A DNA stretch of 64,000 nt, from positions 36,766,001-36,830,000 of the forward strand of contig OZ024753.1 in NCBI GenBank assembly GCA_964016885.1. Reading direction: 5' to 3'. The stretch is from Eledone cirrhosa (Eukaryota). The notes beneath the pieces were generated by a model. The model was not told where the DNA came from, searched no databases, and saw nothing but the letters and a program-made list of their open reading frames with translations. This document shows, in pieces, positions 32,902 through 62,400 of the stretch. Both the position numbers and the translations under genes were made by a program. Position 1 is the first letter of the stretch. Each line of letters starts with the position of its first letter.

Positions 32902-33218
32902 GTGATGGTGAGGCTGTGGTGGCTGGTACTGGTAGAAGCGATGCCGGTAGTACTGATATATATATATATATAACAAAGGAATTGTGGTAAGGAACCAGAT
33001 GGAGCATAACGCACCAGAGTACTCAATACTTAGGGTAGTAGAGCTCAAGCCGTTTCGACAAGTGGTTCCTTACCATAATTCCTTTGCTGGTTCCTTACCA
33101 CAATTCCTTTGTATTGAGTACTCTGGTGCGTTATGGTCCATCTGGTTCCTTACCACAATTCTTTGCGTCCAGAAATAGCCGTCGAAACGGCTTGAGCTCT
33201 GCCGTCGGGGTCATACTT

Positions 33219-33310
<92 letters not shown>

Positions 33311-34664: not shown

Positions 34665-35280
34665 ACTAGGCACAAATCCAGGAAGGGGAAACTCGGTTAT
34701 ATCAGCCCAGGTTTTGACTGATACTTTATTTTACCGATCTCTGAAGTATTATATCAAACGATCTAATGATTCTGCTAACCCTATGCCTTACGTTTCTCAA
34801 TAATAATGGTTTCTCATATAGGCACAAGGCCAGTAATTTGGGGAGAGGGGAAAGTCGATTAAATCGATCCCAGTGCGTGACTGGTACTTTATTTTATCGA
34901 CCGCGTAAGGATGAAAGGCAAAGTTAACCTCGGCGGGATTTGAACTCAGATCATACAGGGCCGTAACTCTATGCTGCAAAGCATGGCGTCCGAACTTCTA
35001 CCGATACTGCCAATCCACCGCCCTGGGTTTCTCAATAATAATAATAATTATATCAACATTGGTTTCTGATTTAGACACAAGACCAACAATTGTGAGGAAG
35101 GGGGTGGGAATTGATTAAATCGACCTCAGTGTGTGACTGGTACTTTATTTTATTGACATCGTCAGAATGAAAAGCATATCTAACCTCGACTTGATTTGAA
35201 CTCAGAACTTAAAGGAACGTTACTATATGCCACAAAGCCTGTTACCCGATGCTCTAACGATTCTGCTAATCCACTGCCCT
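34665..35280 (-). mobile_element. Three adjacent SINE copies of different divergence
   Basis: The block tactttattttatcgac...ggatttgaactcaga...ccaccgccc is repeated. Confidence 0.8.
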
Positions 35281-36810: not shown

Positions 36811-36944
36811 TAGATAGATAGATATAAATAGGCAAATGCATATACTCATATATATGAATATACCGATGCATATCTATCATATCTATCCATCTATCTATAT
36901 ATATATATATAGTATATTATATTGTATTATATATATAGTATATG

Positions 36945-37120
36945 GTGGTGGCTGCCAACTCGTTTTCGAGTACGGCCACTACTTTATATCCATGTAGGAG
37001 AACCCCTACCGATGCGCTGAACGAGTGTGACTTTTTAGTCCAGCCAGCGACTTGAAAACTCTGGTACAAACACTACACTTGTGACAATTATTGACACATA
37101 GTGCTGGCCCATGGTACCAT
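36945..37120 (-). mobile_element. RTE-type LINE 3' end encoding a terminal C2H2 zinc finger
   Basis: Translation [23 protein letters not shown] followed by a short 3' UTR with a ctcgaaaacgag hairpin. Copies at 11811-11982 (-) and 49716-49797 (+). Confidence 0.75.
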
Positions 37121-37282
37121 GTAACGCCAAGTGCAGAGAGATCTCCAGATATATAGCAATGCCTGTGCCGTGAAGCTTTTATAGTGAGCAAAGGCACTGC
37201 ACAAAGCCAGTGTATATATAGTATATATATATATATACAGTATATATATATATACAGTGTGTATATATATATATATATATAG

Positions 37283-37316
<34 letters not shown>

Positions 37317-37456
37317 TATATATAAAAATATAAATATATAAATATATATATATATAAAGGGGTAGTTGTGGTAAGGAACCAGATGGACCATAACGACTTT
37401 AGTCCAGAAATAGCCGACGAAATGGCTTGAGCTCTGCCGTCGGGTCATACTTTCTC

Positions 37457-37549
<93 letters not shown>

Positions 37550-39963: not shown

Positions 39964-40041
<78 letters not shown>

Positions 40042-40125
40042 TGAAGTGTGGTGAGGAACCAGGTGGACCGTTCAGAAAATGCTGTCGAAACGGCTGGAGA
40101 TCAGCCGTCGGGTCCTGACTCTTTT

Positions 40126-40228
<103 letters not shown>

Positions 40229-40326: not shown

Positions 40327-41327
<1,001 letters not shown>

Positions 41328-42509: not shown

Positions 42510-42820
42510 TTCAAATCCGCCGAGGTTAACTTTGCTTTTCATCCTTACGGGGTCGATGAAATAAAGTACCAGTAATGCATTGGGGTATTTGCTGGCCTTG
42601 TGCCAAAAGTAGTAACATTATTATCATAGGGCGGTGGATTGGCAGTATCGATAGAGGGTCGGACGCCATGCTTTCCAGCATAGTTATGTCCCTTTACGAT
42701 CTGAGTTCAAATCCCGCCGAGGTTGACTTTGCCTTTCATCCTTACGGGGTCGATAAAATAAAGTACCAGTAATGCACTGGGTAATTGCTGGCCTTGTGCT
42801 TAAAGTAGAAACAATTATTA
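42510..42820 (+). mobile_element. Partial + full tandem SINE copies
   Basis: Same family as 17341; the full copy starts ggcggtggattggcag at about 42629. Confidence 0.9.
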
Positions 42821-45221: not shown

Positions 45222-45462
45222 AGAAGTAAAAGTTAAGTGGAAATGTCCAAGAGTAAGAGCACTCGGTCCATAGGATGAGTTTAGTATAAATAATTATTAT
45301 AACAGTGACATAAACAGGTATTCAAGTTTCGTTGGGTTTTGGGCCCCAATTTCTTCAGCCTGTCATGAGAAAAATGGAAAACCATTTTTCTCATGACAGG
45401 CTGAAGATATTGGGGCCCAGAACCCAACGAAACTTGAATACCTGTTTATGTCACTGTTGTAA

Positions 45463-45470
<8 letters not shown>
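45222..45470 (-). mobile_element. Fold-back PLE-like remnant (family F); terminal fragment also at 11021-11068
   Basis: Palindrome centred at about 45379. The terminus agtaaaagttaagtggaaat(g/a)tccaag is shared with 11025. Confidence 0.8.
45396..45445 (+). ncRNA. Type I HHR motif (mirror copy 45314-45363, -)
   Basis: ACAGG-CTGAAGA-ta TTGGG gcccagaa CCCAA c-GAAA-cttgaa-TA-CCTGT. Confidence 0.75.
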
Positions 45471-45497
<27 letters not shown>

Positions 45498-45502
<5 letters not shown>

Positions 45503-45796
45503 GTTTCTACTTTAGGCACAAGGCCAGCAAATACCCAGTGCATTACTGGTACTTTATTTTATCGACTCCGTAAGGATGAAAGGCAAAGTCAACCTCAGCG
45601 GGATTTGAACTCAGATCGTAAAGGGACGTAACTATGCTGGAAAGGGCGGTGGATTGGCAGTATCGGTAGAGGGTCGGACGCCATGCTTTCCAGCATAGTT
45701 ACGTCCCTTTACGATCTGAGTTCAAATCCCGCTGAGGTTGACTTTGCCTTTCATCCTTACGTGGTCGATAAAATAAAGTACCAGTAATGCACTAGG

Positions 45797-45800
<4 letters not shown>
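45498..45800. mobile_element. Head-to-head SINE fold-back inserted in (TA)n
   Basis: 45498-45643 (-, 5'-truncated) abuts 45644-45800 (+, 3'-truncated). Confidence 0.9.
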
Positions 45801-45868
<68 letters not shown>

Positions 45869-46851: not shown

Positions 46852-47405
46852 GGGTGGTGGGTTGGCAGTATCGGTAGAGGGTCGGACGCCATGCTTTCCA
46901 GCATAGTTACGTCCCTTTACGATCCGAGTTCAAATCCCGCCGAGGTTGACTTTGCCTTTCATCCTTACGGGGTCGATAAAATAAAGTACCAGTAATGCAC
47001 TGGGGTAATTGCTGGCCTTGTGCCTAAAGTAGAAACAATTATTACTAATATACGGTGAATTAGCAATATCGGTAGAGGGTCGGACGCCATGCTTTCTAGC
47101 ATAGAGTTACTGCCCTTGCCATTCTGAGTTCAAATCCTGCCGAGGTTAACTCTGCCTTTCATCCTTACTGGGTCGCTAAAATTAAGTACCAGTCATGCAC
47201 TGGGGTCGATTTAATCGACTTTCCCGTCCCCAAAATTGCTGGCCTTGTGCCTATATGAGAAACTATTATAAGTCTCTTTACGGTTTGAGTTCAAATCCCG
47301 TCGAGGTTGACTTTGCCTTTCATCGTTACTGGGTCTATAAAATAAAGTACCAGTAATGTACTGGGTTATTGCTGGCCTTGTGCCAAAAGTAGAAACAATT
47401 ATTAC
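46852..47405 (+). mobile_element. Tandem SINE cluster (three units)
   Basis: Same family as 17341; units start at about 46852, 47052 and 47271. Confidence 0.9.
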
Positions 47406-50992: not shown

Positions 50993-51826
50993 ATACAGAG
51001 AATTAGTATATCTACCAACATATGCGTACAGATGTACACTAATGCTAGCAAATACATAAGTTGTGTCATAGTACCTAGGTGGTTCAATGCAGGAGGATGC
51101 AGAACAATAATATGAAAGACGTAAAATAAGAAAATTTTTTAAAATATTAAAAATTAACTTACTAAAATTTTCACTCCAACTAATTAGTTTCTGTAATGGG
51201 ATAAAGATAGTTACGTAATATAACCATCGAGAATTCATTACGTCATTAGGGAGTCTATTCTCAGCTAAGTCTCCAGGCAATGCGCGGACACTAGGGACTC
51301 ATATAAAAATAATAATAATAATTCGGTGGAAGGAACAGCTAGCGGGGACTGGATTCCATGCACTGAAAAAGTTCGCTGCCTCTGGTCAAATGGCAGATTC
51401 TAAAGAATCAATCACGTGACACTGAGGCTAGTCGGAAGGAGTGGGTTGGTAAGATGACAGAAGCCTACTACCACACCAATGAATTAGTAGCGGATTTGGC
51501 AGGTTTGCTCAACAAATAAATAATTTGGAGATAAATACAGAGAATTAGTATATCTACCAACATATGCGTACAGGTGTACACTAATGCTAGCAAATACATA
51601 AGTTATGTCATAGTAATTATTATTATTTTTATATGAGTCCCTAGTGTCCGCGCATTGCCTGGAGACTTAGCTGAGAATAGACTCCCTGATGACGTAATGA
51701 ATTCTCGATGGTTATATTTACGTAACTATCTTTATCCCATTACAGAAACTAATTAGTTGGAGTGAAAATTTTAGTAAGTTAATTTTTCATTTTTTTTTTT
51801 ATTTTCTTATTTTACGTCTTTCATAA
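50993..51826 (-). mobile_element. Non-coding PLE/retrozyme-like element (family G): 542-bp unit + partial tandem repeat + inverted arm
   Basis: Direct repeat 50993-51073 / 51535-51615; inverted arms about 51112-51322 / 51616-51826. A collapsed remnant lies at 61861-61930. Confidence 0.8.
51681..51763 (+). ncRNA. Type I HHR motif (mirror copy 51173-51254 has mutated core CTAATGA)
   Basis: ACTCC-CTGATGA-c GTAATG...CATTAC a-GAAA-CTAATTAG-TT-GGAGT; stem III ACTAATTAGT is palindromic. Confidence 0.8.
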
Positions 51827-54242: not shown

Positions 54243-54630
54243 GAAAACGAAAAATCAGTGATGCATCTGAACTCAATTTATTGTGTTACAATTGTTTCGC
54301 CGGCGGACTGCTCGAGACGCGATCATTGTGTGGATCTGTCTGATTCTGGACCCGCAGGTTCGACGGACACGTCTAATGATTTCTCTCGTGAGAGAATATG
54401 GTCCGAAATCATTAGACGTGTCCGTCGAACCTGCGGGTCCAGAATCAGACAGATCCACACAATGATCGCGTCTCGAGCAGTCCGCCGGCGAAACAATTGT
54501 AACACACAGTAAATTGAGTTCACATGCATCACTGATTTTTCGTTTTCTATTCTATCATACTATGCTCTGTAAGAGCATAGAGTGCTCAACCGGCATACCG
54601 CCTATGGAAGCATCTTAGCTACCATCAGAC
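54238..54630 (+). mobile_element. GC-rich fold-back PLE-like remnant (family H)
   Basis: Arms about 54238-54383 / 54405-54553. HHR 3' half GAAA-CAATTG-TA; 3' hairpin atgctct gta agagcat followed by agagtgctc. Confidence 0.7.
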
Positions 54631-59031: not shown

Positions 59032-59888
59032 AATATACAGTATTTTCCGTTGTGTTGTAATATAAATATTACACATAGTAGATTATCAGCTCACGTAGAG
59101 TTTGCTCGACGGTTCCAGTTGTAGTTCCAAAAGTAATCCGGAGAAAAATAGAAAGATTTGAATGGATACAGTTTAGTTGAAAGGAATTTATTGACACGTG
59201 TTTCTATAACAGTTACATAACCTAAAACAGCTATCTACAAACTTTTAGTTATGCAGACATTCAATATTTCAATGTTATTATTTACTGTCATTTCATCAGA
59301 ATAATATTACTGAGGACCTATTTAGTTTTTATAGAGAATATTAGGAGGAAGGGGTGAAGTTGTTAGAAGAATAGTTGAAGGAGTGGTTTTTCGATAGCAG
59401 TGAGAATTCTTGGTGGCAGTGAGTAATTAGATTCCCATCTGTTGTTTTGACATTTTTTATAGAATATATTATTGGTTATTTTTCTAAATCTATAGAAGGA
59501 TTAGAGATAGTAAAGATATGCGTGGTTGGTTTTGTGTTTGCACTTAACATTCAGACTTAAATTTTTCTTTCAAGTGTACGTATTCTTTCACCCACGCATT
59601 CACACACAAATATATTTGCACACCTCTACAAAATACATATACTCACAATTCACATATTCATACTTACATATATATACACATGCATACACATATATATACA
59701 CACATGTATTCATGTACATACATACGCGCTCATGTGTATACATTTTCATACTCAACTTATCTTTATATATACACACGTATAGACACACACATATATACAT
59801 ACATACTCTAGTCCATGTGTACACACATACACATACATACACATCCATATACACATACATACATACACATATATATATACATACATAC

Positions 59889-59935
<47 letters not shown>

Positions 59936-59936
59936 C

Positions 59937-59989
<53 letters not shown>

Positions 59990-60260
59990 AGCACTTTAAT
60001 ACATGAATACACTTACATCTAACTATACACATCAAACATATATATATATATTTACTTATTTATATACATTTTCACATATATATACATACTTATGGACGTT
60101 TTTAGACACATTCATTATCGCATATTTGTACCTATTCTCATCAGCATATCTTTTCATTATTAGTATGGTAATTTAAGGTTATTAATATATGTTGAGAAGA
60201 AATTGTTTTTATATTTTTCTAACTAGATTAAGGTTTATATAGTTGGGGGATGTCCCTCTT

Positions 60261-60480: not shown

Positions 60481-60600
60481 GTGTCTAAAAACGTCCATAA
60501 GTATGTATATATATGTGAAAATGTATATAAATAAGTAAATATATATATATATGTTTGATGTGTATAGTTAGATGTAAGTGTATTCATGTATTAAAGTGCT

Positions 60601-60653
<53 letters not shown>

Positions 60654-60654
60654 G

Positions 60655-60701
<47 letters not shown>

Positions 60702-61285
60702 GTATGTATGTATATATATATGTGTATGTATGTATGTGTATATGGATGTGTATGTATGTGTATGTGTGTACACATGGACTAGAGTATGTATGTATATATG
60801 TGTGTGTCTATACGTGTGTATATATAAAGATAAGTTGAGTATGAAAATGTATACACATGAGCGCGTATGTATGTACATGAATACATGTGTGTATATATAT
60901 GTGTATGCATGTGTATATATATGTAAGTATGAATATGTGAATTGTGAGTATATGTATTTTGTAGAGGTGTGCAAATATATTTGTGTGTGAATGCGTGGGT
61001 GAAAGAATACGTACACTTGAAAGAAAAATTTAAGTCTGAATGTTAAGTGCAAACACAAAACCAACCACGCATATCTTTACTATCTCTAATCCTTCTATAG
61101 ATTTAGAAAAATAACCAATAATATATTCTATAAAAAATGTCAAAACAACAGATGGGAATCTAATTACTCACTGCCACCAAGAATTCTCACTGCTATCGAA
61201 AAACCACTCCTTCAACTATTCTTCTAACAACTTCACCCCTTCCTCCTAATATTCTCTATAAAAACTAAATAGGTCCTCAGTAATA

Positions 61286-61402
61286 TTATTCTGATGAAAT
61301 GACAGTAAATAATAACATTGAAATATTGAATGTCTGCATAACTAAAAGTTTGTAGATAGCTGTTTTAGGTTATGTAACTGTTATAGAAACACGTGTCAAT
61401 AA
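61286..61402 (+). ncRNA. Type I HHR motif with long stem II (mirror/sense copy 59188-59304, -)
   Basis: TTATT-CTGATGA-a ATGACAGT...ACTGTTAT a-GAAA-CACGTG-TC-AATAA; stem III ACACGTGT is palindromic and the cleavage triplet is GUC. Confidence 0.8.
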
Positions 61403-61439
61403 ATTCCTTTCAACTAAACTGTATCCATTCAAATCTTTC

Positions 61440-61501
<62 letters not shown>

Positions 61502-62135: not shown

Positions 62136-62228
<93 letters not shown>

Positions 62229-62400
62229 CGAAGGAAATGTGGTAAGGAACCAGGTGGACCATAACGCACCAAAGTACTCAATACTTAGGGTAGTAGAGTG
62301 GGTAATAGGAACGAGTAGGACCCCGACGGCTGAGCTCAAGCTGAGTCCAGAATTAGCCATCGAAACGGCTTGAGCTCAGCCGTCGGGGTCCTACTCGTTG

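Follow-up and report, generated by a model that had tools for sequence, protein, structure and literature searches.

At positions 45499 to 45801 of the 64,000-nt stretch of Eledone cirrhosa DNA analysed here (the window), two copies of a SINE lie head to head inside (TA)n, among many fold-back elements that resemble insertions of PLEs. The locus raises the question of which enzyme folded a SINE back on itself, and whether this one insertion says anything about how the family as a whole is mobilised. A sequence-only reading had proposed that the SINE may be moved by PLE machinery rather than by a LINE.

Anatomy of the SINE fold-back

Alignment of the arms bore out the head-to-head arrangement inside (TA)n, with flanking tracts of 31 and 69 nt. 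The left, tail-bearing arm (45499 to 45644, minus strand) covers family positions 44 to 189 and is 5'-truncated with a complete 3' end, while the right, tail-less arm (45643 to 45801, plus strand) covers positions 1 to 159 and begins exactly at the family 5' start. The arms have a 2-nt microhomology, AG, in common at the inversion junction (45643 to 45644). The paired part (45529 to 45644 with 45686 to 45801) is 116 nt long and 96.6% identical; outside it are an unpaired 41-nt spacer (45645 to 45685, plus strand), which is the SINE's own 5' head, and the 30-nt SINE 3' tail (45499 to 45528, minus strand), which only the left arm carries. The predicted DNA fold of the hairpin has an energy of -139.6 kcal/mol (z of -29), and none of 100 shuffles was as good. 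A B-box-like Pol III promoter motif was matched at 45718 to 45728 (plus strand), and a degenerate stretch of the spacer at about 45655 to 45666, which a regular expression did not match, looks A-box-like by eye.

Five other full-length copies begin at the very base where the right arm begins, which indicates an RNA template, and the 3' junction and last 37 nt of the left arm are identical to those of the ordinary copy at 24493. The fold-back probably arose in one reverse-transcription event. Its form recalls two kinds of insertion. The PLE-like fold-back structure described by the sequence-only reading is present, in that the inverted 5'-truncated arm, the one-sided 30-nt tail and the TA flanks match the PLE-type fold-backs of the window; among the SINE loci, only this one combines a 5'-truncated, inverted copy with a one-ended tail. 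A tail-primed arm joined to an inverted, internally primed arm through microhomologies is also the arrangement of twin priming. The short gap or overlap at the inversion point that is typical of L1, and not defining for other LINEs, is replaced here by a 116-nt overlap.

The left tract (45471 to 45501, 31 nt) and the right tract (45800 to 45868, 69 nt), both given on the minus strand, each read ATT(AT)nAA in the sense of the tail arm. They may represent the 3' copy and the expanded 5' copy, respectively, of a degenerate target duplication. The duplications of usual twin-primed insertions measure 10 to 20 bp; on this reading at least one TA copy must have expanded, to 69 nt. The far edge of the right tract reads ATT, the usual target start of the SINE, as do 13 of the 299 TA-array starts in the window, this one included, in a test made after looking at the site. 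This edge is the independent part of the flank pattern and the same kind of site as that of copy 24493; by eye, no ATT edge was seen in the printed flanks of the PLE-type loci.

Both arms carry T at family position 91 (45597, minus strand, and 45733, plus strand), where the family has C. This variant, already noted from the sequence, was confirmed; it is a transition at a CpG site. C91T was found in none of the 16 other segments covering the site (15 have C and one A), a count that rests on 20 aligned segments, two of which do not cover the site, with the internally deleted segment 16879 left out. The exact 12-mer with the T variant occurs in the window only in the two arms. A private variant was common to 5 of 78 pairs among the 13 younger segments, namely the two arms, one tandem duplicate pair and three others, and these 3 of 76 other pairs put chance sharing at about 4%. 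CpG transitions were seen at 7 of 171 CpG positions, compared with 41 of 1617 for changes elsewhere (a count without copy 17737, which is a duplicate). Differences between the arms were found at three or four sites (positions 120, 121, 152 and 157). At position 157 the left arm has T, as do copies 24493 and 42510, and the right arm has A, a mismatch that calls for recurrent mutation, a target-derived base or two templates; in the right arm this base lies no more than 3 nt from the junction and may be target-derived. As to the suggestion that one arm was copied from the other, the arms most likely come from one event. That both come from one template is therefore likely but not proven.

The SINE family and its ordinary insertions

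The window is AT-rich (GC 19 to 42% per 2 kb), and simple repeat makes up 48% of it after masking. Within it, 20 SINE segments were aligned in a family frame of 189 nt. Position 1 is the start of six of them (the copies at 31769, 42633, 46854, 34803 and 35062 and the right arm of the fold-back), and the others are variably 5'-truncated; the family is thus interspersed and multicopy with a common 5' start and variable truncation, as expected of a SINE. A motif search matched the B-box in the head and found the A-box degenerate. ARAGORN, and Rfam at gathering thresholds, returned nothing in the window, including no tRNA, and Rfam judged by E-value in two regions returned sub-threshold, hairpin-driven microRNA-type matches only, with no hammerhead or tRNA. 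Stray copies were also sought in contigs of bacterial and archaeal genomes, and none was found. The family is most likely a SINE of the tRNA type, whose normal insertion would be LINE-like, through target-primed reverse transcription at sites that start with ATT.

The family presumably resembles octopus tRNA-derived SINEs in its box-containing head, its length of about 190 to 220 nt and its high density in an AT-rich, microsatellite-rich genome. These SINEs include OK, OR1 and OR2, reportedly described by Ohshima and Okada in 1994, and the tRNA-Core and tRNA-Deu complement of octopus genomes (PMC8967140); the passages on them contain no fold-back form. MetaSINE, which is defined by a 66-bp Meta domain after the tRNA head, was dropped as an assignment, no likeness being seen by eye to two bivalve MetaSINE alignments in the supplement of PMC4824008.

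Two forms of the family were observed, the younger being without about 33 nt that older copies have, and copies 17538 and 17737 are tandem duplicates of each other. All SINE clusters of the window other than the fold-back are head to tail (16870 to 18100, 34803 to 35275, 42510 to 42817 and 46854 to 47404) and have the appearance of insertions into the ATT tails of earlier copies. A reading of these clusters as PLE-like partial tandems was rejected, since their members are unlike at subfamily sites and carry duplications of their own.

Target-site duplications of at least 9 nt were found in 8 of 17 ordinary copies, all eight among the 13 younger ones, compared with 19 of 272 cross-pairs in a control, mostly nested neighbours (the 17 are those ordinary copies that possess a 3' end, which 16994 and 39018 do not). 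Of the eight, one coincides with the boundary of a tandem unit and another falls within pure (ATT)n; the remaining six are firm, measure 11 to 19 nt, start with ATTAT and overlap the (ATT)n end of the SINE. Such duplications next to a simple-repeat 3' end are those of a SINE, and their pattern points to LINE-type behaviour (PMC6007223). The copies at 24493 and 31779 do lie beside family D remnants and TA tracts, as the sequence-only reading had observed, but they have duplications of 6 and 14 nt, respectively. TA adjacency was found at 3 of 18 SINE loci, compared with 21% of all positions (P of 0.77) and 15% of ATTAT sites (P of 0.51), and a family-wide bias toward TA or microsatellite targets was rejected because this is the background level. 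The fold-back is 1 of about 19 SINE insertions in the window.

The SINE has no likeness to PLE-type 3' ends either: none of its comparisons with the tails of the 17 fold-back units, which cover the families of the window only, beat shuffles (best 31 of 200), none of the seven hammerhead topology matches in the window falls in a SINE copy, and the GAG(T/C)(A/G)CT tail motif of the PLE-type families is absent from it. With fold-backs rare, duplications frequent, TA adjacency at background and the shared variant at a CpG, most of the findings that had been named beforehand as telling against PLE mobilisation of the family were obtained within the window.

The SINE tail sequence had no match in the window outside the SINE copies, and no partner LINE was found there. 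By inference, R4/Dong is a candidate partner: its (TAA)n targets in molluscs fit the (ATT)n end and the ATTAT-starting duplications (PMC7998251), and it is the most numerous recently active LINE group in O. vulgaris (PMC13282606). RTE, CR1 and other LINEs remain candidates beside it; octopus genomes hold abundant SINEs, active Penelope families and Dong-R4, CR1, RTE and L1-Tx1 LINEs (PMC13282606, PMC8967140). A reading frame at 36930 to 37212 (minus strand) was seen to end in a C2H2 finger (37009 to 37212, Pfam), followed by a short hairpin and CAC repeats; an Atlas search with the C2H2 remnant returned generic C2H2 clusters. This combination would be typical of an RTE-type LINE 3' end. The remnant was not accepted as the partner, the score of the SINE tail against it being reached by 21 of 500 and 91 of 500 shuffles.

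PLE-type fold-backs around the locus

Masked self-comparison of the window gave 17 other fold-backs, a set that excludes the complex locus 32973 as well as separate copies that form inverted pairs. Their arms are 35 to 962 nt long (median 71), with an overlap of at least 100 nt in 5 of the 17; 15 have a one-sided tail of 22 to 112 nt (median 72), which is 40 nt or shorter in 3 of the 15, and (TA)n adjoins most of them. The nearest (45222 to 45470) has arms at 45286 to 45377 and 45382 to 45470 (89 nt, 96.6% identical) and a 64-nt one-sided tail (45222 to 45285). A topology scan placed a hammerhead-ribozyme-like core in it at 45401 to 45446 (plus strand; stem I of 6 bp, stem II of 5 bp, minimal stem III), with a mirror copy at 45313 to 45358 (minus strand), and Rfam gave no hammerhead match at this fold-back. 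The earlier description of a hammerhead fold-back directly adjoining the SINE pair is thus right as to the element, by topology and not by Rfam, but about 27 to 28 nt of TA separate the two, and the neighbour is probably a separate insertion.

In the window as a whole the topology scan gave seven matches, six of them in fold-back families, compared with zero to two in 30 shuffles; Rfam found no hammerhead in these families. The minimal stem III and an unpaired base before stem II fit PLE-type hammerheads (PMC4209133). In five multicopy families (B to F) the tail-less arm ends at a fixed site, and, as read from the alignments, its 5' reach exceeds that of the tail arm in 10 of 12 two-arm family loci and equals it in the other 2. 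The motif GAG(T/C)(A/G)CT, first chosen by eye, is present in 7 of 15 tails (6 of 13 families), a count reached by none of 5000 shuffles; the tails concerned are 12425 to 12510, 27365 to 27455, 30747 to 30826, 40432 to 40507, 45222 to 45285, 54553 to 54630 and 62228 to 62306, and family C carries the motif with one mismatch. It is a candidate cis signal for the reverse transcriptase. We also observed that it lies about 20 to 30 nt into the tails of otherwise unrelated families, and that an ACTC-like stretch able to pair with it often precedes it.

A Pfam scan of 136 of 175 complexity-filtered reading frames detected no PLE coding remnant: there was no reverse transcriptase or GIY-YIG domain and, apart from the C2H2 finger, only weak noise, so the label PLE-type rests on structure. 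The layout matches the published structure of PLE insertions (PMC8557442, PMC3846280) and the pair of internal start sites found in vitro (PMC11167929). The fixed internal ends, the polarity and the tail motif fit a model of two reverse transcriptases starting at two sites on one RNA, one trailing the other.

Several of these loci have peculiarities of their own. Fold-backs and inverted insertions with one-sided tails are dense in TA tracts between 12425 and 62402, where the 17 loci are joined by 37357 to 37457, 40036 to 40126, 28150 to 28462 and 40980 to 41153. One pair of inverted arms (59148 to 60109 and 60481 to 61442) is 962 nt long and 100% identical, with a 371-nt spacer, a 112-nt one-sided tail and no coding match; it is either a very recent insertion or an assembly artefact. 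A family B locus (32971 to 33223) has several extra tail fragments between its arms, which suggests that template jumps recurred within a single event. In families B and F (regions of 62342 and 40548) the tail-less arm appears by eye to begin inside or just after the hammerhead core, so that these copies would hold only partial ribozymes. The fold-back at 51150 to 51790 has a complete-looking hammerhead (51686 to 51763) and a 296-nt spacer that repeats upstream sequence at about 50995 to 51070, and the palindrome at 28546 to 29115 has its centre inside a TA tract, unlike the other fold-backs. Two of the three family D remnants (24335 to 24578 and 31781 to 32037), both tail-less arms, have a SINE copy no more than 40 nt away.

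SINE clusters are near PLE-type units more often than expected: 3 of 10 have one of the 28 units at a distance of at most 45 nt (P of 0.008, from small numbers and with a cutoff chosen after looking). P is 0.057 without the fold-back locus, and 0.023 for the other two clusters given their TA adjacency. A shared habitat and unrecognised PLE remnants could explain this proximity.

Origin of the fold-back and its place among known systems

Our tentative preference is for a single insertion in which both ends of the target primed on the same SINE RNA, the enzyme being that of the SINE's usual, putative LINE partner. Reverse transcription primed at nicked target ends is an established mechanism, as is twin priming. 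The enzyme would nick at the ATT edge of the TA tract, as at copy 24493, and both broken target ends would prime on the same RNA. One end would prime internally, at the AT-rich stretch at about positions 157 to 159, and run to the RNA 5' end at position 1; the other would prime at the normal 3' tail and, trailing, displace the first cDNA as far as position 44. Joining of the two cDNA ends through the 2-nt AG overlap, followed by fill-in, would give a 116-nt fold-back with a one-sided tail, and point mutations and TA expansion would come later. Snap-back of one full-length cDNA was rejected, since from the alignment it would make the tail arm the longer one.

Twin priming is known to give a tail-primed arm and an internally primed inverted arm with short microhomologies (PMC2912911, PMC12016303), and the exact start of the right arm at family position 1 would be expected of run-off at the RNA end. 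The ATT at the far flank slightly favours the normal LINE partner, for which the lack of a hammerhead, a tail motif and a tail match to the fold-back units also counts, although a PLE enzyme prefers ATT in vitro as well (PMC11167929). Polarity does not decide the enzyme, since it is the same in L1 twin priming and in the PLE-type neighbours. Against the LINE route, the 116-nt overlap is far outside that of L1 twin priming, which has a median of 12 bp and quartiles of 4 and 17 (PMC12016303). Inverted Alus are 1 in 5554 (PMC2912911) or 0.02% of 5936 (PMC12016303), and non-L1 LINEs were seldom inverted in cell assays (PMC4245944). The routine long overlaps of the neighbours, the TA expansion to 69 nt, T157, the CpG site of C91T and the failure to find a partner LINE in the window also count against it. 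Taken together, the evidence on the enzyme is close to even between the usual LINE partner and a PLE.

A one-off capture in trans, in which a Penelope-type reverse transcriptase/endonuclease would cut (TA)n, prime from both strands, as with its own RNA, and use SINE RNA as template, is unlikely but keeps real weight, because the 116-nt overlap is unlike L1 and like the neighbours. The architecture and polarity are those of the PLE-type families in the window, TA lies on both flanks, the 30-nt tail is within the published range of 30 to 40 bp (PMC8557442), and inverted Alus and non-L1 inversions are rare. A PLE protein is able to cut both strands, extend them and start at internal sites in the absence of homology (PMC11167929), PLEs can move other sequences in trans (PMC3846280), and besides the PLE-type unit 27 nt away there is the clustering of SINEs near such units. 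However, the published trans-mobilisation needed PLE terminal repeats in cis, with no cross-mobilisation between PLE types in the work described (PMC3846280), and the PLE protein needs its own 172-nt RNA region (PMC11167929); the SINE has neither hammerhead nor tail motif. Moreover, most PLE-type tails of the window are longer than 40 nt, the ATT flank is in keeping with the usual target of the SINE, and the neighbours are PLE-type by structure only.

A rearrangement at the DNA level is improbable. A full-length copy beside a hairpin-forming (TA)n would later have undergone inverted duplication through two microhomology template switches during replication or repair. (TA)n is self-complementary, short microhomologies are present at both junctions, and the shared CpG change would be explained as a mutation after insertion. 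Both switches, however, must fall at the first base of the SINE with no flanking DNA duplicated, and the result must copy the polarity of nearby RNA-derived fold-backs. Less probable still are two independent insertions that met head to head, one losing its tail later and C91T arising twice at the CpG. The family does nest in clusters, the arms differ at sites that include the T157 seen in other copies, and unrelated pairs do at times have a private variant in common; yet the other clusters of the window are all head to tail, the heads overlap by 2 nt with no duplicated target between them, and three coincidences are needed.

Dependence of the whole SINE family on PLE machinery, the larger claim of the sequence-only reading, is very hard to sustain. 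No partner LINE was found in the window, PLE-type units are close by, and a PLE endonuclease with an ATT preference exists (PMC11167929), but the younger copies have duplications far more often than the cross-pairs, TA is not enriched, no 3' end or motif is held in common, and about 18 of 19 insertions are unfolded whereas most PLE-type loci are folded back. Lastly, fold-back chimeras are a known long-read artefact, but the differences between the arms, the sequence-specific junctions and flanks that are not mirrored beyond the TA tracts leave an assembly or read artefact with next to no probability.

As it stands, the fold-back is one odd insertion, a one-off in this window. Inverted SINE insertions are known, and are very rare in humans; open-access titles and abstract openings yielded no PLE-format SINE insertion and no PLE use of SINE RNA without PLE signals. 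The fold-back would be of some interest with either enzyme, and little has been documented on non-L1 LINEs that twin-prime with long overlaps. If PLE capture were true and recurred genome-wide, the SINE would have a LINE route giving duplications and a minor PLE route giving palindromes. SINE fold-backs offer a simple genome-wide test of PLE reverse transcriptase selectivity in vivo. Of more use than the SINE pair may be the PLE-type fold-backs that surround it, and the two-start trailing model drawn from them would extend the two-start result obtained in vitro (PMC11167929).

Among known systems, twin-primed L1, Alu and SVA insertions (PMC2912911, PMC12016303) are like the SINE fold-back in having a tail-primed arm and an inverted, internally primed arm, with microhomologies of 1 to 3 nt, arms that may overlap and a possible target duplication. 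The fold-back differs in the length of its overlap (116 nt, against the 12-bp median of L1; PMC12016303), in internal priming just 30 nt short of the 3' end, on an RNA of 189 nt, in its ATT/(TA)n target and in a partner enzyme that is putative and not necessarily L1. PLE insertions of the pLTR-plus-tail form (PMC8557442, PMC3846280, PMC11167929) have the same head-to-head, inverted 5'-truncated copy with long paired arms, the same extension (30 nt here) at one end only and a (TA)n target. Unlike them, the SINE has no hammerhead, PLE sequence or common tail motif, although Naiad PLEs are also without a hammerhead (PMC8557442), and other members of its family insert with LINE-type duplications. 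The fixed internal start of PLEs is seen in families B to F, whereas the SINE fold-back is a single example. Non-LTR retrozymes and non-autonomous derivatives of PLEs, MRC1 among them (10.64898/2026.07.22.740005, PMC8557442), carry PLE terminal-repeat or hammerhead sequence, which the Pol III-type SINE does not, but like the SINE they are short and non-coding, and they are thought to be moved by PLE enzymes.
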